In this document: positions 52,857-64,000 of the stretch, in pieces | Layout of the letters: each line of letters begins with the position of its first letter | How positions within the stretch are numbered: the first letter of the stretch is position 1 | Origin: an uncultured Haloferula sp. | Lineage (GTDB): Bacteria > Verrucomicrobiota > Verrucomicrobiia > Verrucomicrobiales > Akkermansiaceae | NCBI GenBank assembly: GCA_965652295.1 | Contig: CBFGTS010000008.1 | Span: forward strand, 151,332-215,331 | Length of the DNA: 64,000 nt | Reading direction: 5' to 3' | Notes under the pieces: generated by a model | Databases searched by the model: none | Told to the model about the DNA's origin: nothing | The model's input: the letters and a program-made list of their open reading frames with translations, nothing else | Program-made: the position numbers and the translations under genes

Positions 52857-53049
52857 TTATTCGAGGAAGGGGTTGAGGATGGTCAGGTCGGCAATCCGGC
52901 GTCCGTGCTGAAGGTCCTCCGAGTAGAGGGTGGCGACGCCGGATTCGATCGCGGCGGCGACGATGAGCGAGTCGTAGAGACGGTATGGGGTCTGCCGATG
53001 GATCTCCAAGGCACGCGCGTGGATCGAGGGCGTGGGGGGGAGAGCGGGA
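52857..53049 (-). pseudogene. N-terminally truncated PIN-domain (VapC-like) gene
   Basis: 'RALEIH...YDSLIVAAAIESGVATLYSEDLQHG...ILNPF' is a PIN C-terminal half; its 5' part is replaced by the CRISPR array end. Confidence 0.8.
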
Positions 53050-54335
53050 GGTTCAATCCACACCCCCTTGTGAGGGGCGACCCGGATCCGCGAACGGATC
53101 GAAGTCCTGGGTCGAGTTTCAATCCTCGCCCCTCGTGTGAGGGGCACCCCCGCTGTCGAAGATGCTCAGACCCGTTGCCATGTTTCAATCCGCGCCCCTC
53201 GCGTGAGGGGCGACTCTTCGTGCCAGTTGATGACGTTGACCGCCGGGTAGCTTCAATCCACGCCCCCTTGCGAGGGGCGACCCAAGTCGTGGAGCCCCAT
53301 GGGGAAGCGGTAGAGGTTTCAATCCACGCCCCCTTGCGAGGGGCGACTGCGGAAATCCCGCGTCCCCACCGCGTAGAGCGGGTTTCAATCCGCGCCCCTC
53401 GTGTGAGGGGCGACTGGTGTTCGGTTCGGCACGCAGCCGGGATTCGAGGTTTCAATCCACGCCCCCTTGTGAGGGGCGACCGCAGCCAAGTGGGCCGCCA
53501 AGCAGGACGCGAAAGTTTCAATCCACGCCCCCTTGTGAGGGGCGACCGAGTGCCCGCCGGCTGGGGCTGGTGTGGGACATGTTTCAATCCACGCCCCCTT
53601 GTGAGGGGCGACCGAGAGGACGCTGACTGCCATCGCGGACCATCCTGTTTCAATCCACGCCCCCTTGTGAGGGGCGACCAGATCCAGCCGCCACGCCTCG
53701 CCCGCCTTGAAGTTTCAATCCACGCCCCCTTGTGAGGGGCGACTGGTCTTGCGTTTCGGTTTGGTGGCCATGGTAGTGTTTCAATCCACGCCCCCTTGTG
53801 AGGGGCGACTACCGGAGATTTCTCTGCGGTTCTGCCCGCGCTGTTTCAATCCAGGCCCCCTTGTGAGGGGCGACGTTGCAGGGATGGCGGTGCGATCCAG
53901 CGTCTTGTTTCAATCCACGCCCCCTTGTGAGGGGCGACCGCATGCGCAGAGCTTCCTGCACTGCCGGGGCGTCGTTTCAATCCACGCCCCCTTGTGAGGG
54001 GCGACCCTAATCCTATCAGGCAACAATTGAATCAGCGAACGGTTTCAATCCACGCCCCCTTGTGAGGGGCGACTTAGAAACTTCCGGGGGAGTAACAACC
54101 GAGTCTCGGTTTCAATCCACGCCCCCTTGTGAGGGGCGACGAGGCCCGCGCCAGCCGTTGGCCGACTGGAACTGTTTCAATCCACGCCCCCTTGTGAGGG
54201 GCGACATAATAACGAAATACTTGCCGAATGTGATGAAGTTTCAATCCACGCCCCCTTGTGAGGGGCGACTGAGTGAGGAGCGTGCGATGCAGCTGGTGAG
54301 GGAGTTTCAATCCACGCCCCCTTGTGAGGGGCGAC
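53050..54335 (-). CRISPR. Type I-C CRISPR array, 20 repeats / 19 spacers (32-36 nt)
   Basis: Consensus on the minus strand GTCGCCCCTCACAAGGGGGCGTGGATTGAAAC (32 nt); variant repeats are concentrated at the low-coordinate (trailer) end. Confidence 0.98.
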
Positions 54336-56604: not shown

Positions 56605-56922
56605 TTAGTCGCTTGCTTGGTCGGAAACGATTTGCTTCCAGCGCTCCATGGGTATGAAGACAGGATTCTCGTCGCCCGCTATTTCAGGGTCCCAAGCCCA
56701 CCAGTCCCCGGCGATCTCGGCGAGTATGCGGAGATCTTGTGAAATCTCACGCCGGACTTGCCCCGACGGGCTGTTGTCATCGTCGGGGACGTCCCACAGG
56801 ACATACTCAAGTCCGCTGAGCCAGTCGGCACAGTGAAAGTCCTCCGAATATTGGCGCATGCGGCGAAGGAGAACCTCCTGCGCAAGCTCGGCGCGGGTGG
56901 GGCCTGGCGGGATGGAGGACAT
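56605..56922 (-). CDS. Hypothetical 105-aa protein inside the cas operon
   Basis: ATG 3 nt after the cas7 stop on the same strand; 'SEDFHCADWLSGLEYVLW'. Confidence 0.65.
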   Translation of the reverse strand: MSSIPPGPTRAELAQEVLLRRMRQYSEDFHCADWLSGLEYVLWDVPDDDNSPSGQVRREISQDLRILAEIAGDWWAWDPEIAGDENPVFIPMERWKQIVSDQASD

Positions 56923-57812: not shown

Positions 57813-59621
57813 TCAAACAGTGGTGGTCTCGGGTTCAAGCTGTTCGGTGGTGCTGTTGGACGTGAACAGGGATCTGCGCTGGTGGTAGTAGCCTAAGATG
57901 AACCGGCCTTGCTCAATGAGCGTGTGGGTCTTCTTGGTTCCGGAGAGATCCCATTTGATGTCTCCGACCATCTGCTCGAACTGGATGCGACGGCCAGGGT
58001 TCAGATGGCGTTGGTGGTGAACCGACAATGTTTCCAAACGAGGGAACACCGCTGCCGGGGTCGCGCAGGCGCTTGAGAAATACTTTTCCTTTATGGTGTG
58101 TTCGAGTTTGCGTTGGGTCTGGGCGTAGTGGCCTTCCTCTTGGATTTTTTCCAGAACGGCGAAGAGTCGACCGTGGCGGTAGGCGGAATCTGGGTTGGTC
58201 GGGTCTAGCATGACGGTGATGGTTTGGTTGTGATTTCTGACAAGCACGGCTTTGATGGCGGCGGCGCGGAGATAATTGATGGTGTGATCGGCATGGATCC
58301 GGCGGATGATGGCGGCGAATAGACCTTCGGGGTAGAGGCCGCCTTCGATGATCGCTCTGGCATAGGCTCCGCCAAGTAGTGGTGGGATCTTATCGCGATC
58401 AGGTTTGCCGCCTTTCGGCGGTGGAGTCTGATCAAGGATTCGCCAGATGGCGGGAAACTCGGGATCGGGAAAGCCTTTTCCTGTCTGATCGTTGAACTGC
58501 CGCACGATCTCAAGACACCGATGGTGATCGTGGAGCTTGCCGATCAGATCCGAGATGGTGGAGCGGTGAAAGAAGCGGATGGAGAATCGACCTGGGTTAG
58601 GCTGTTCAAGTCCGAGAATGAAAAAGGGTGTCTCAGGGTCACCGAATTCCTGGTATTTACCACCGCTTTTGATCGCCGCCAGAAGTCTGGAGATTTGGTC
58701 CAAGCGGTTCTGGTCCTGCGATTCCGTTCGCGACGACGATGGTTCCTCAAAGACTTCCGCAAAGACGCTCTCAAAAATGGTTTTCTCCTTGGTCCAGTGG
58801 ACGACCGTTGTGTCCGCGATTCGAGTTCGATGTCGATTTCGCATCGGGCCGTCGGTCAACGCGTTGAGGGCGGTTGCATAACGGAAGGCAGCCGATTCGC
58901 TGACAGGGCAGTTCTCGGTTTTGCTCAAACCGTAGGACTCGTAAGAAGAGTTCTCCTGGATGCCGACAAGGGCGACAGAGCTTTTGAATCCCTTAATGTC
59001 GGGATGAATCCTGCAAATCGAGCTGACTGCACCGGTTACCAAGCACTGGGACGCTTCCGAAGGGTCTTTGCTGTTCTGGTGCGAGATCCACCAGCTTCTC
59101 ACTGGCGGGTGTTCATGGATGCCTACTTTCTCTTCCTGAAGGACCCAGATGCCGAAATTGGTGCCAATTTCTGATAGCTTCGCCAATTCATTGGCGACCT
59201 CGGGTGATTGTTGTTCGGTTTGCCATTTCTCAAGGAATCGGCAAACCGAAGAGTAGCCGAGGTCCATGATCTCCGCCTCTTTCGCCAGATGAGTGGTTTT
59301 GAACGCTTCGAAACATTCCTTTGCCGCGTTTTGCTTTTCAGGGACTGACGTCCAGCCGAGCATGTATTCCGGCTTGTCGCAGAGAAACTGTGATTTCACT
59401 CCGCTCGTTCGCTTCTCGTGCGCAGGGACCTCTTGCCGATCCGGAATGGCTCTACCTCGGTCGCTTTTGATTCGCGCGTCCTCGATTTGGACGAGGGAGC
59501 CGTCGGGCCGGATGCGAATGCGGAAGCTGATCTTTTGCGGGGAGAAGCCGGGCGGGGCGATCTCGTAGGTGGGATCGTCGGCGAGGCGGGCGTAGAGGTC
59601 GTTAAGGGCTTGGAGGATCAT
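57813..59621 (-). CDS. cas8c: Cas8c/Csd1 (C-terminus probably also encodes Cas11 from the internal ATG at 58211)
   Basis: '[10 protein letters not shown]', 'CLVTG', '[11 protein letters not shown]', '[11 protein letters not shown]'. Confidence 0.95.
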
Positions 59622-60343
59622 GCGCGGACGGGGAAAGGGAGTTCGGGGACCGAGATGATGCCGTCGGTCATGGAGGCGCGGAAGAAGTGTGGGGTGGTGG
59701 AGCGGACGTTCTTGGTGGCCCGGTCCTGATCGAACTCGATGTCATGGAGCATGAAGCCGAGGTCCTTTTCGCCTCCGAACGACTCGTGGGGTGAGGGGAG
59801 GTCGGACTCATTCTCGATGAGCTCGAAACGGACAGGGAACTCTCGGCACCCGAAGTAGGGCTGGTGGAAGGCCTGACCCTTGCGTGCGCGGCGTTTGAAC
59901 ATGTCGAGGTGCTTGCCGATGGCCTCGCTCTCCGGTGACGGCGAGTCGTCCTTCTCCGGGCGGGAATCGAGGATATGGACGTGGGCCCTGATGAGGTAGG
60001 CAACGTCCTTGAGCAGGAGGGAGGCGCGTTGCTGGCGGTTTTCGGCGACATCCATGGTGGGGCGAATGTCAGGATCGCGCATGGCCGCGTTGACACCCGT
60101 GCCGCCTTTGACCGGGATCTTGGAGGAAACCTCATTGCGGCGGATGTTGGTGAAGCGGATGGGGTTGAGGACGTGGATTTCGTCGATGATCCAGCGGATC
60201 TGGGGCTTCCAGTAGATGGCTTCGAGAATGCCGCGGGCGGCGGAAGGGGTAATCACGTCGTAGGAGACACGCTCGACCTTCATTTCGGGACGGCTGAAGA
60301 GGGCATAGTCGCCGGAGACTTTGAGGTGGATGCCGTAGTTCAT
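59618..60343 (-). CDS. cas5c: Cas5c (Cas5d), crRNA-processing subunit
   Basis: '[34 protein letters not shown]', 'PYFGCREF', 'DLGFMLHD'. Confidence 0.97.
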
Positions 60344-60357
60344 GGGCTGGATGGGGC

Positions 60358-60392
60358 TTGATTTGATGGCAATCTGATGTCAGTTTGCAGTC
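60358..60392 (+). promoter_or_regulatory. Putative leaderless antitoxin promoter with operator-like repeats
   Basis: TTGATT-N17-CAGTTT ends 6 nt before the GTG start and overlaps TGATGGCA/TGATGTCA repeats. Confidence 0.35.
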
Positions 60393-60647
60393 GTGGCGAC
60401 GTTGACGATACGAAATGTGCCGGATGAATTGCACCGATGGCTCAGGGAGCAGGCGAAGCGGAATCGCCGCAGCCTGAACCAAGAGGTGATTGCGGAACTT
60501 GCGATGAGAGTAGGATTGGCGGATGAAGAGGCGAAAAAAGAGAGGGTGCGGAAAATGACAGCCCTCGCAGAAGATCTGAGGAGAGAGCTTGGTGCCCCCC
60601 TGTCTGCTGAACAGATCCGAGCAGGGATTGAGCAGGGTCGAAGGTGA
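60393..60647 (+). CDS. FitA/Arc-like ribbon-helix-helix antitoxin
   Basis: 'MATLTIRNVPDELHRWLREQAKRNRRSLNQEVIAEL'. Confidence 0.9.
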   Translation: MATLTIRNVPDELHRWLREQAKRNRRSLNQEVIAELAMRVGLADEEAKKERVRKMTALAEDLRRELGAPLSAEQIRAGIEQGRR

Positions 60648-60655
60648 TTTTTGCC

Positions 60656-60697
60656 TTCACTGAATCTATGCTAAAAAGGATGGGGTTGACTTTGCAA
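60656..60697. promoter_or_regulatory. TTC PAM and partial protospacer for the crRNA-like unit, overlapping predicted promoter elements
   Basis: TTC-ACTGAATCTATGCTAAAAAGG; minus-strand TTGCAA-N18-TAGCAT; plus-strand TATGCT. Confidence 0.75.
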
Positions 60698-60719
60698 TCC
60701 GAAAAGGCAGGATGCGGAC

Positions 60720-61136
60720 GTGATTGTCGTGGATTGCACTGTCATCGCGGATTTTTTCATCGCGGAAGCTGGAGACCAACGGGCTGCTCAACGGCTATTG
60801 GAAAAAGATGCGGACTGGATTTCGCCGATGTTGTGGCGCTATGAATTCGGGAACGTTCTGCGCACTCAGGTCCGTGGAGGACGGCTGTCCGCGGAGTTGA
60901 TGTCGCGCTACCTGCGAGCGGGGGAAGGTTTGGTGGTCGATAGTGTGGTGGAATTGGACGTCGTGGCCGTTGGAGAAATGGCCAACGAACGGGGGCTGTC
61001 GTTTTACGATGCGAGCTACGTGTGGCTGGCGCGGGAGCGGGGGCTCCCCTTTTATTCCCGGGATGGGAAACTTTGGAGGAAATGCCCCGACCTTGTGACC
61101 CACATGGATTCGCTTGGTCGAGCGTCTCCCGGCTAG
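60720..61136 (+). CDS. vapC: VapC-family PIN-domain toxin
   Basis: 'MIVVDCTV', 'YEFGNVL', 'LSFYDASYVWLA', 'SRD': acidic PIN residues are intact. Confidence 0.92.
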   Translation: MIVVDCTVIADFFIAEAGDQRAAQRLLEKDADWISPMLWRYEFGNVLRTQVRGGRLSAELMSRYLRAGEGLVVDSVVELDVVAVGEMANERGLSFYDASYVWLARERGLPFYSRDGKLWRKCPDLVTHMDSLGRASPG

Positions 61137-61137
61137 A

Positions 61138-61242
61138 GTCGGCACCCTGCATGCAACGGGTTCCGCGGATTGAAACACTGAGTCTATCGCTAACAAGGTC
61201 AGTGGCGAGGCGGGGCGTCCTTCGGGATGCCCCGCCGGTTTT
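61138..61242 (+). ncRNA. Solitary repeat-spacer crRNA-like RNA (CreA/CreR-like)
   Basis: Pseudo-repeat GTCGGCACCCTGCATGCAACGGGTTCCGCGGATTGAAAC (61138-61176), 32-nt spacer (61177-61208), 12-bp hairpin with a TTCG loop (61209-61236), then GGTTTT. Confidence 0.85.
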
Positions 61243-61265: not shown

Positions 61266-63650
61266 TCAACTGCATACCAAGGTGGTGGTTCCGGTATCCT
61301 GTTCCTCGAAGGTGATGCCTAAGTCAGGTGAATAGTTGATCTCGGTGGAAATCAGGGCGTGGAATTCTCCGTCCCGGAGGACCTCGAAGGAGCGGAGGTT
61401 TTCGTCCCGATGTTTCGGAGAAATCTGGACGATGTAGCGCTGGAGACCGCGGAGCAGGTTGCGGTTGAGGGGAATGCTTGGAATACGAAGTTGCTCGATC
61501 AGCTTGCGCGCTTTGTCGTCGTAGGGGATGAGGACGGGAACTTGCCAGTCGTCGATGAGGCGGAACTTTTCAGCAACGGTGGCGAATTGAAAATGGAAGG
61601 GAAAAGCGCGGTCGTTTTCCCTACGGAAGCTCTCGGTCGAGACGATGCGTTTGGAGTCCCAGCGACTTTTCTGCTGGTAGTAGTAGAGGTCGAAGTAGTG
61701 GTGGATGGCCTGCTGCTCGAGGAGGTCGGGATGGAGCTCGATGAGGCCGCTCGCGACCTGGGCGGTTTCCCGGAAATAGGCTTCACCTTTCTGGTCTTCG
61801 GGGATGAAGACATGGGTTTGGCCGGGCTGGGAGAGTTTGCCGTTGCGGTTGCAGCGCCCGGCAGCTTGGGCGATCGAGTCGAGTCCGGCGAGGGAGCGAT
61901 AGACGACGGGGAAATCGACATCGACTCCGGCTTCGATGAGCTGGGTGGAGATGAGGCGAACGGGGAGCTTTTTTTGCAGACGCTCGCGGACCTCGGCGAG
62001 GATGCGGGAGCGGTGTTCCGGACACATGAGGGCGGAGAGGTGGTAATTTCCCTCGCCCTGGCCGAGGAGACGGAAGATTTCGCGAGCATGCTTGCGGCGG
62101 TTGACGATGCAGAGAGCCTGCGGCTGATCGAGCAATCGCTGGACGAGGTTGGCGTCTGGGAGTTTGCCGAGGAAGTGAACGTCAACCCGCTTGAGGGCGG
62201 CGAAGAGTGCGCCCGGGTCACGGATGATTTCCCGACAGTTTTTCAAGCCAATGGGAAATTCATCAGGGTGATGATGGATCGCGGGCTGGGTGGCGGTGCA
62301 GAGGACGGCGGTGGTGTGGTAGTGGTCGGTGAGCTCACGGAGGACGCGAAGGCAGGGTGAGAGATAATCGACGGGGAGCGTCTGGGCTTCGTCGAGGATG
62401 ACGACGGAGTTGGCGATGTGGTGAAGCTTCCGGCTGCGTGAGGTTTTCGAGGCGAAGAGGGATTCGTAGAACTGGACGGCGGTGGTGATGATGATTGGGG
62501 CGTCCCAGTTCTCGGCGGCGAGGCGTGATCGTTCGGTTTCGTTCTCCGGGGACAGGGCGGAATGGTGCTCGATGAGCGGGGTGAAGGTGTCCGTCTGGAG
62601 AGAGGCGACGATTTCTCGGATGACTTCGGCGTTTTGCTCGATGATCGAGGTGAAGGGGACGACGAATATGACGCGCGTCTTGCCATTTGCGATGGCGTGG
62701 AGGAGTGCGAACAGAAGAGACGACAGGGTCTTGCCTCCGCCGGTAGGGACGGTGAGAGTGAAGAGGCCGGGCTTTTCCCCGGAGGCGGCGCGGCAGTCAT
62801 CGACGACCGCTTTGCGCTGGATGTTGACGATGTCGTGACGAGCCGGGGTGCCGAACGAATCGATGTGGGTGCTGACGAGATCGGCAATTTGTTGGAGTGT
62901 GTTGTTGGGGATCGAGTTTCGGGTCGAGGCCTGGTGGGGATCCATGAAGGCCTCGGTGGCGAGGAAGTCGGCATCAACGAGGCGGGAGAAGATGAGACGG
63001 CTGAAGAAGCCGAGGGAGAAGTCGTTGGGTGTTCTCAGAAATGGCGGGAGAGGCGGGACGGGCACATCGAGGACATCGGGAGGAGCGCAGGACCAGTCGG
63101 GGAGGTCGGGTTTGGTGAGTCGATGGCGCTGGCAGGTATGGTTTGATTCGCCATCAAGGAGTCCGGAGTGGTGACCGGCGATAGGGTATGCAAGCAGGTG
63201 TCCGAGAAGGTGTTTGGAGGCGGCATGTTGCGCTCCGGCGGTGGAGTGATCCAGCTTGCCGGTGACTTCGGCTTGGTGCGGATCGGCCTTAGATGTGAGG
63301 TAGGCTTGCCACTTGGGAGCGAACTTTCCGAGATCATGCCAAAGCCCGGCGAGATAGCCCCATTGGCGAGCGGCGTCGCGGTCCGGTCCGGTCGGAAACA
63401 TGTCCGCGGCGAATTTAGCGGTCCACCAAGCGACTTTGTTGAGGTGGCCATGGTAGGGATCGAGGGCTTCACAGGCCTCGCAATGTCCTCCGCGGAGGGC
63501 GGGGCAATCTTCGCTGAAAAGTGGTTCCCATGGCTGCCCCGGCGGGGCGGTGTGGGCGTATGGGGGAGAGGTTTCCACAATGGGTGTGAGTTCTGGCTGT
63601 TGAAGGCCTCCTGGCTTTTGGGGCAAGTCCGGCGGCGGGTCAGGGTTCAA
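61266..63650 (-). CDS. cas3: Cas3 HD nuclease-helicase
   Basis: 'YAH', 'WHDLGK', 'HSTAG', 'GHHSGL', 'VPTGGGKT', 'DEAQ', 'QAAGRCNR'. Start codon uncertain. Confidence 0.96.
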   Translation of the reverse strand: MNPDPPPDLPQKPGGLQQPELTPIVETSPPYAHTAPPGQPWEPLFSEDCPALRGGHCEACEALDPYHGHLNKVAWWTAKFAADMFPTGPDRDAARQWGYLAGLWHDLGKFAPKWQAYLTSKADPHQAEVTGKLDHSTAGAQHAASKHLLGHLLAYPIAGHHSGLLDGESNHTCQRHRLTKPDLPDWSCAPPDVLDVPVPPLPPFLRTPNDFSLGFFSRLIFSRLVDADFLATEAFMDPHQASTRNSIPNNTLQQIADLVSTHIDSFGTPARHDIVNIQRKAVVDDCRAASGEKPGLFTLTVPTGGGKTLSSLLFALLHAIANGKTRVIFVVPFTSIIEQNAEVIREIVASLQTDTFTPLIEHHSALSPENETERSRLAAENWDAPIIITTAVQFYESLFASKTSRSRKLHHIANSVVILDEAQTLPVDYLSPCLRVLRELTDHYHTTAVLCTATQPAIHHHPDEFPIGLKNCREIIRDPGALFAALKRVDVHFLGKLPDANLVQRLLDQPQALCIVNRRKHAREIFRLLGQGEGNYHLSALMCPEHRSRILAEVRERLQKKLPVRLISTQLIEAGVDVDFPVVYRSLAGLDSIAQAAGRCNRNGKLSQPGQTHVFIPEDQKGEAYFRETAQVASGLIELHPDLLEQQAIHHYFDLYYYQQKSRWDSKRIVSTESFRRENDRAFPFHFQFATVAEKFRLIDDWQVPVLIPYDDKARKLIEQLRIPSIPLNRNLLRGLQRYIVQISPKHRDENLRSFEVLRDGEFHALISTEINYSPDLGITFEEQDTGTTTLVCS

Positions 63651-63904
63651 GTGGTGCTGAGGACGGGAGAGGGAATTTTGAGCGAGTCGTGAAGAAGCCT
63701 TGTGGATGAGCGGCTGGAAGCCGCTGGGACGGCCTGCGGCAGGATGCCGCAGCCACCGTAGGAAATCGGGAATGCTGATGCGGGAGGATTCATCGAGCGA
63801 GCATTGGAGTTAGGGATGTGAATCGACGCGTGACCAGATGAAACCTAGGGTAAATACGAAGATGTGTGTCATGCTGTTCGGAAGAGCGAGATAAGTTTGC
63901 TAGT

Positions 63905-64000
<96 letters not shown>

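Follow-up and report, generated by a model that had tools for sequence, protein, structure and literature searches.

The window analysed here is a 64,000-nt stretch of contig CBFGTS010000008.1 from an uncultured Haloferula sp. of the Verrucomicrobiota. It carries a complete type I-C CRISPR locus with cas3, cas5c, cas8c, cas7, a 105-aa frame, cas4, cas1, cas2, and an array of 20 repeats. A toxin-antitoxin cassette, which is non-cas cargo, lies between cas3 and cas5c in inverted orientation relative to the cas genes. On the plus strand, this interval contains a gene for a FitA-like ribbon-helix-helix (RHH) antitoxin, a gap of 72 bp, a PIN toxin gene, a solitary repeat, a spacer of 32 nt, and a T-tailed hairpin (Table 1). 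As in the FitAB and VapBC systems, the PIN toxin, which has four acidic residues, is encoded downstream of the FitA-like RHH antitoxin. Unlike in those systems, however, the gene overlap is replaced by what we predict to be a guide-controlled promoter, and translational coupling is lost. The acidic residues of PIN domains have a catalytic role. In the toxin family, D5, E42, D97, and D115 are invariant in 33 of 33 proteins (duplicates and the 37-aa L049 excluded; such labels denote the related loci compared). The nearest solved toxins are PAE2754 and PAE0151.

The spacer behind the toxin gene specifies a guide that pairs with the gap between the two genes. The target lies behind a TTC protospacer-adjacent motif (PAM), and 19 of guide positions 1-22 are paired; positions 6 and 18 are mismatched, and the guide base at position 12 is unpaired. 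A preliminary description of this DNA had placed the protospacer here, and this location is borne out, since the target is the only site in the 4.37-Mb genome that matches the guide seed. A cognate TTC-PAM target is found in the locus's own gap, on the toxin sense strand, in 10 of 12 distinct split loci, with 12-19 matched positions. In all ten of these, the target lies between antitoxin and toxin, not ahead of the first cargo gene, and the first guide-target mismatches fall at position 6, 12, or 18. Guide and target co-vary: non-cognate pairs score at most 7, except for L052 and L053, which have a common guide seed. The target's nearer end and the predicted start of toxin transcription at 60720 are 40 nt apart. 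In three distant loci (L054, L058, and L076), the target is shifted to 29-33 nt ahead of the toxin start. The repeat hairpin, the 11-nt tail, and the 3' hairpin are kept in all ten folded loci, although the hairpin of L076 stops 6 nt before the tail. That the guide-target match and the promoter words described below arose by chance, or are relics, is highly improbable. Single promoter words are indeed near chance level, but the match is unique in the genome and flanked by a PAM, and co-variation extends over 10 of 12 loci. We take the target to be a real regulatory site.

Two further observations concern the guides. Extra guide bases that are absent from the target occur at positions 6, 12, or 18 in the L131 guide (742; three), in the L008 guide (2789), and in the window (61188), which suggests that bulges are tolerated at flipped-out guide positions. 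L038 (identical to L026 and L062) has two repeats behind the toxin gene, and no target was found for its first spacer.

Unsplit relatives of this pair have a 4-nt gene overlap and an operator over the promoter, whereas here a 72-bp gap takes the place of the overlap. Of 49 toxin loci, 39 were parsed. L066, L086, L120, and L121 were left out because no antitoxin was parsed, as were L061, L065, L077, L079, L084, and L085 because of a short contig or a start that was not found; the genes of L061, L077, and L079 overlap by eye. All 15 parsed rows with a repeat behind the toxin gene (12 distinct loci) are split, with gaps of 61-125 bp, and the protein antitoxin gene is intact in all 12. None of the 19 rows with genes that overlap by 4 nt or abut has a guide behind the toxin; two of them, L039 and L042, have guides elsewhere with different targets. 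A class-wide search found no further split locus, the toxin being present in 3 of 400 genomes. On the unrooted tree, the history of the split needs four changes, two of which are forced by starred branches, and the split may have arisen once or several times. The old overlap start is out of the toxin frame in six of the seven loci of the close clade. In the window, it opens a 66-aa out-of-frame reading frame across the toxin start (60644-60844, plus strand); a similar frame is seen in L037, and the start is in frame in L073.

The gap also contains a promoter candidate facing the toxin gene. Of 34 distinct regions upstream of the antitoxin, 28 have the words TTG[AC]NN-16/18-nAnnnT ending 5-7 nt ahead of the start codon, from which a leaderless antitoxin promoter is predicted. 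A leaderless promoter accounts for how close the antitoxin start (60393) lies to the cas5 start (60343), at the distance of 49 bp given in the preliminary description. The same layout recurs ahead of the toxin: in 7 of 12 gaps, against 0.11 expected, TTG[AC]NN-16/17-nAnnnT has its end 6 nt from the toxin start. In the window, it reads TTGACT (60686-60691)-16-CAGGAT (60708-60713), 6 nt before the GTG at 60720, and is missing from the preliminary description. A Shine-Dalgarno-like word is absent in 11 of the 12 gaps. Judged from these words and their spacing, the promoter that matters is probably this plus-strand element, leaderless and serving the toxin alone. RHH antitoxins act through operators. 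The candidate operator over the antitoxin promoter, to which the antitoxin would bind, has half-site matches of 6/6 and 6/6, and the toxin promoter has 1/6 and 4/6. Between the two promoters, 8-18 of 37 positions are alike, which is suggestive only of a duplication. A genome-wide promoter model learnt by expectation maximisation collapsed to codon periodicity, gave no usable -10 box, and was dropped.

The preliminary description had proposed that the guide target covers promoter DNA facing the toxin. This part stands, but the conserved promoter is TTGACT-16-CAGGAT and not the TATGCT box that had been named, which is not conserved. A plus-strand start near 60679 had been expected from TATGCT. 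Its -35 matches at only 3 of 6 positions and it has no TG extension, and the conserved promoter predicts a start at 60720 instead. The prediction that Cascade bound between antitoxin and toxin should block toxin transcription is supported by the guide-target match and the conserved promoter, and a shortage of Cascade would then free the toxin.

It is probable, on the strength of these genomic patterns, that a promoter gated by Cascade and serving only the toxin divides this toxin-antitoxin operon, and that loss of Cascade would lead to toxin excess. The unit would be an RHH-PIN type II operon, normally with a 4-nt overlap. It lies inverted between cas3 and cas5, and its genes are parted by a 72-bp insert that would bring the toxin a second promoter, leaderless and its own. 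The antitoxin promoter would keep its operator and stay under toxin-antitoxin autoregulation. The toxin promoter, lacking a full operator, would be shut by Cascade loaded with the guide, with the -35 element covered. Cas5c would cut this guide from the 3' end of the toxin transcript, and the partial nature of the pairing would spare the DNA from cleavage. If anti-CRISPR proteins block Cascade, if other guides titrate it, or if it is lost, toxin mRNA would rise without antitoxin mRNA. The toxin would then outnumber the antitoxin that presumably binds it, and the free nuclease would stall the cell, so that the cassette may act both as an addiction module and as an anti-anti-CRISPR trap. The hairpin behind the spacer, with its T-rich tail on the plus strand, would form the 3' end of the guide transcript. 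Co-transcription of guide and toxin is preferred because in 11 of 12 loci the repeat ends 40-64 nt past the stop codon of the toxin gene, and it would provide a feedback on the toxin promoter. TTCGCT-19-TAGAGT was the sole candidate for a promoter of the guide's own.

Table 1. Features of the cas3-cas5c interval and its surroundings, in window coordinates.
Feature	Position	Strand	Remark
Main CRISPR array	53050..54335	-	20 repeats, 19 spacers of 32-36 nt
cas5c (type I-C)	59618..60343	-	First of cas5-cas8c-cas7; TIGR01876 above cut-off
Predicted leaderless antitoxin promoter	60358..60386	+	TTGATT-17-CAGTTT, 6 nt ahead of start; layout of 28/34 distinct antitoxin upstream regions
Candidate inverted-repeat operator	60364..60382	+	Two 8-nt half-sites 3 nt apart, over antitoxin promoter
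Antitoxin, FitA-like ribbon-helix-helix	60393..60647	+	84 aa; PF22513, E 2e-14
PAM	60656..60658	+	TTC
Guide target	60659..60679	+	19 of guide positions 1-22 paired
Cas-facing promoter candidate of the preliminary description	60668..60697	-	TTGCAA-18-TAGCAT; letters present, register not conserved
Predicted leaderless toxin-only promoter	60686..60713	+	TTGACT-16-CAGGAT; predicted start 60720
VapC-type PIN toxin	60720..61136	+	138 aa, GTG start; D5, E42, D97, D115 intact
Solitary degenerate I-C repeat	61138..61176	+	Hairpin, then 11-nt tail agreeing with array repeat at 10/11
Regulatory guide RNA spacer	61177..61208	+	32 nt
12-bp hairpin, predicted guide transcript 3' end	61209..61236	+	T-rich tail on plus strand only
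cas3	61266..63650	-	Open frame with HD and helicase domains, the true start lying probably a few codons inward

Several points weigh against this interpretation. Five of the 12 gaps (L038, L073, L054, L058, and L076) fail the in-register promoter rule, and in L054, L058, and L076 the target sits where the toxin promoter would have to be. Six of the seven in-register loci belong to one seven-member clade and are therefore not independent, L040 being the sole case outside. Both the rule and a family matrix trained on 34 antitoxin promoters derive from promoters in which the 'CA' of the -10 box comes from the operator. A generic matrix (E. coli-like sigma-70 frequencies) gives the plus-strand site 6.6 bits, compared with 8.1 bits for the minus-strand site discussed below. 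Minus-strand sites are themselves in excess: 7 of 12 gaps hold one by a loose rule and 5 of 12 by a strict rule, against 1.8 expected in each case. Five rows (L078 and L080-L083) have a gap of 39-53 bp with no guide behind the toxin. Finally, L051 and L072 have a 4-nt guide shift and a target deletion in common. Their guide-target match is lost, yet the toxin frame is intact and the toxin promoter is kept, and so loss of control is not always lethal. Within the locus sequences retrieved, no alternative target turned up for the shifted guide of either locus, and the cas3 of L051 is fragmented.

The persistence of L051 and L072 also bears on a different explanation, in which the circuit merely tunes guide and toxin levels and sets no trap. 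Excess antitoxin would absorb the toxin, and the cassette would be a dispensable passenger in an insertion hot spot. Intact guide-free pairs between cas3 and cas5 in L007, L010, and L011 fit with this, as does the absence of an insert from most related loci. It is nonetheless improbable in view of the repeated co-variation of guide and target, the intact catalytic residues, and the recurrence of the split with a second antitoxin family.

We now turn to transcription towards the cas genes. The preliminary description had proposed that the target also covers an active minus-strand promoter that drives cas5-cas8c-cas7 through a leader antisense to the antitoxin. Derepression would then refill Cascade and lower the antitoxin, which is compatible with the split operon and its Cascade-gated toxin promoter. 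The underlying letters are as reported: TATGCTA lies at 60667-60673, and on the minus strand TAGCAT (60673-60668) and TTGCAA (60697-60692) are 18 nt apart, so that a start at 60661 would give a leader of 318 nt. The candidate has the canonical A-11 and T-7 and is the best match of the gap under the generic matrix, where its 8.1 bits are reached in 2% of 150 shuffles. Under the family matrix, it has 3.6 bits, reached in 56% of shuffles, and is not the top hit of the gap. It matches the consensus at 8 of 12 positions, and a 9-of-12 scan found no site. Sites as good occur in 159 of 2724 (5.8%) GC-matched 72-nt genome windows per strand. On these measures, the candidate is a borderline case against chance.

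Comparison with other loci gives a similarly divided picture of this candidate. The excess of minus-strand sites in the gaps has no counterpart in control regions: antisense sites occur in 6% of 312 AT-rich upstream regions of the genome, compared with 12% in shuffles, and at the antitoxin promoters there are 3 against 3.2 expected. However, the loose rule was picked after the data had been seen, and the loose sites are scattered in position, save one common to L058 and L076. All six of the nearest relatives retain a TTGAC word on the minus strand, but without a proper -10 box, and these six are near kin. Neither TATGCT nor TAGCAT is kept at the PAM-anchored position in any of the six same-geometry relatives. 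In all six, target positions 10-15 yield no hexamer with both A-11 and T-7, and the register is unique to this genome. CarD helps weak -10 boxes. No CarD C-terminal domain was found in the genome, which is 98% complete, and -10 boxes lacking T-7 are therefore less likely to function. The back-to-back arrangement stressed in the preliminary description is no evidence by itself, because any hexamer with A at position 2 and T at position 6 mirrors on the opposite strand. Divergent PcreT and Pcas8 flanking one CreA site are a precedent in the published text (10.1101/2023.03.10.532045), and 18 bp is given as the commonest bidirectional start spacing in E. coli (PMC12825309). The geometry here fits this sigma-70 class, although a good -35 is missing on the plus side and relatives do not keep the box. 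A CreR-type target lies in or beside a promoter of the cas effector operon; here there is the minus-strand candidate, which is not conserved in register, and the target is 316 bp from cas5. In L005, described below, a candidate leaderless cas5 promoter adjoins the PAM. Taken together, an active minus-strand promoter at this site is rather unlikely.

The premise that cas5 needs its own promoter is weak. The end of cas3 lies at most 50 bp from cas5 in 32 of 54 related loci (distances from alignment ends, with three undetermined), and no convincing minus-strand terminator is present between cas3 and cas5, where only weak hairpins precede T runs inside the antitoxin gene. For these reasons, read-through from cas3 to cas5 is taken as the default. 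A relaxed scan of the 49-bp gap found no leaderless cas5 promoter. No cas3 promoter was found in the 350 bp between cas3 and the contig end at 64000, and it was not located because the contig ends there.

Read-through makes room for autoregulation by a roadblock, with no second promoter. Target-bound Cascade would slow transcription from cas3 into cas5, and one site would throttle both the toxin promoter and cas5-cas8c-cas7. The adjacency of cas3 and cas5 fits with this, as does the guide-end hairpin, whose T tail is confined to the plus strand. For the cas transcript, the strand paired by the guide is the non-template one, and E. coli type I-E Cascade is described as blocking elongation when it pairs on that side (PMC4288209). 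For nuclease-dead Cas9 and Cas12a, however, the permissive approach is that from the PAM-distal side (PMC9758054), and here the cas genes are transcribed in that direction; this polarity would instead block read-through from antitoxin to toxin. By analogy, then, the type I-E strand rule would favour a block of cas read-through, and the dCas9/dCas12a polarity a block of antitoxin-to-toxin read-through. Partial R-loops would probably be weak blocks, and the cas3 promoter was not located. We regard the roadblock as possible, though on the unlikely side.

A second class of split operon faces in the direction of the cas genes. L008, L009, and L131 contain a MazE/AbrB antitoxin and a PIN toxin (by Pfam in L008 and L009, by likeness in L131) split by a repeat, a guide, and a target. 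A TTGAC[AG] word facing the toxin lies 8-9 nt from the PAM, although the -10 boxes are poor, and no more than about 10 nt part the end of the toxin gene from the cas5 start. L007, L010, and L011 have this pair unsplit and with no guide. L032 and L039 look similar to the cas-oriented class but have a different antitoxin. In L009 and L131, there is also a divergent candidate for a guide promoter, and one site lies between it and the candidate promoter for toxin plus cas5. From this gene order, the toxin promoter of the class would also drive cas5, which is the coupling of the preliminary description without antisense RNA. The class therefore offers a direct test of that coupling.

A broader generalization can be put forward only tentatively, and we hold it to be doubtful as a whole. 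Verrucomicrobiota type I-C systems may have repeatedly turned protein toxin-antitoxin operons into sensors of Cascade by wedging a guide-controlled promoter between the two genes, with an inverted RHH-PIN form and a cas-oriented MazE/AbrB-PIN form. The same site would also control cas5-cas8c-cas7. In the cas-oriented class, this would be direct, with the toxin promoter running into cas5; in the present locus, it would be through a cas-facing promoter or a roadblock, with the transcript antisense to the antitoxin. If so, a shortage of Cascade would raise the toxin, lower the antitoxin, and refill Cascade from one switch.

Toxins and cargo supervised by CRISPR RNAs are already known. The closest likeness is to CRISIS of type I-C (10.1101/2024.12.27.630466). 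According to the text of that report, its cargo also lies between cas3 and cas5c with a solitary repeat directly behind it, and an 11-nt handle, a 3' hairpin, a TTC PAM, mismatches at positions 6 and 12, and a -35 element beside the target are all common to both. Its target distance is 37-46 bp with the -35 next to the target, compared with 40 nt here, and the CRISIS-type partial match with a TTC or TTA PAM beside a -35 element is present in the window. In CRISIS, however, the target stands ahead of the first cargo gene, with repression of entire defence systems, whereas here the target lies between antitoxin and toxin. The present cassette faces against the cas genes, and a term search of the CRISIS text finds no PIN toxin-antitoxin pair named among the cargo. 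In CreTA and in CrePA, the latter from the type I-F system of Acinetobacter baylyi (10.1101/2024.01.05.574328), the gap that follows cas3 holds a toxin promoter repressed by a CRISPR-like RNA, as is predicted here. The CrePA report places the -35 immediately downstream of the target and describes anti-CRISPR proteins as triggering the toxin. There the RNA is the sole antitoxin, in contrast to the present type I-C locus, where a protein antitoxin gene forms a second layer and the toxin is a PIN nuclease.

One target between divergent toxin and cas promoters, which is the coupling of the preliminary description, is seen in the CreA/CreR system of Haloarcula hispanica (10.1101/2023.03.10.532045). 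In its published text, the cas promoter is beside cas8 and the toxin is an RNA, whereas the candidate cas promoter here would read through the antitoxin gene. Because the divergent-promoter site is already established in that archaeon, only the antisense passage through the antitoxin would be new. Mini-arrays that face against cas3 are also known, with an enrichment of toxin-antitoxin cargo and targets predicted in cargo promoters (10.1101/2023.03.03.530964). They are described for type I-D, with enrichment in I-B, I-E, and I-F1, the targets are upstream of the cargo, and the sections covered describe no split operon. Our literature search, mainly of open texts, found no account of a type II operon with a guide-controlled promoter wedged between its genes, although supplementary tables may list such loci; two small supplement files of PMC10120712 hold no such operon. 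What appears to be new, given that CreTA, CrePA, and CRISIS are known, is a protein toxin-antitoxin operon split by a putative Cascade-gated promoter, with two antitoxin families.

How type II toxins are naturally released from their antitoxins is a long-standing question. The present layout offers a defined and testable trigger, in which the loss of a CRISPR repressor would lead to toxin-only transcription. With it, CRISPR supervision, known from modules with RNA antitoxins and from entire defence cassettes, extends to protein toxin-antitoxin operons that are split. Natural states before the split, after it, and in decay are available for comparison as overlapping pairs, split pairs, and L051 and L072. 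The mechanism also predicts that carriers of anti-CRISPRs are punished, in a phylum whose CRISPR biology is little known.

Other guide-bearing cas3-cas5 intervals differ from both classes. In L002 (2216-2350, plus strand), a guide target lies on the cas5 start codon, and behind it come TTGACT on the plus strand and an RNA containing tRNA-like D-arm and T-arm words, which is a candidate for a guide-repressed small RNA. Neither this RNA nor the guides gave a match with Rfam (four loci) or ARAGORN (twelve loci). In L005 (2205-2300), the guide target lies between the leaderless cas5 promoter candidate, which abuts the PAM, and a plus-strand promoter candidate. This site is likely to serve CreR-type autorepression. 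The cas3-cas5 gap of L141 and L142 contains a mini-array and a small gene of no known family (HNH-like by eye) before cas5, and the L142 guide matches a nearby TTC site.

Elsewhere in the window, the spacers of the main array show no self-targeting, the longest match being at most 24 of 32-36 nt. The 105-aa frame between cas7 and cas4 (56605-56922, minus strand) has no Pfam or NCBIfam match. A remnant of a second PIN gene, with a weak PF01850 match, lies at the trailer end of the array (52857-53147, minus strand), where the repeats are degenerate. Two abutting 7-nt tandem repeats are located above cas3 (63900-64000) and reach the contig end.
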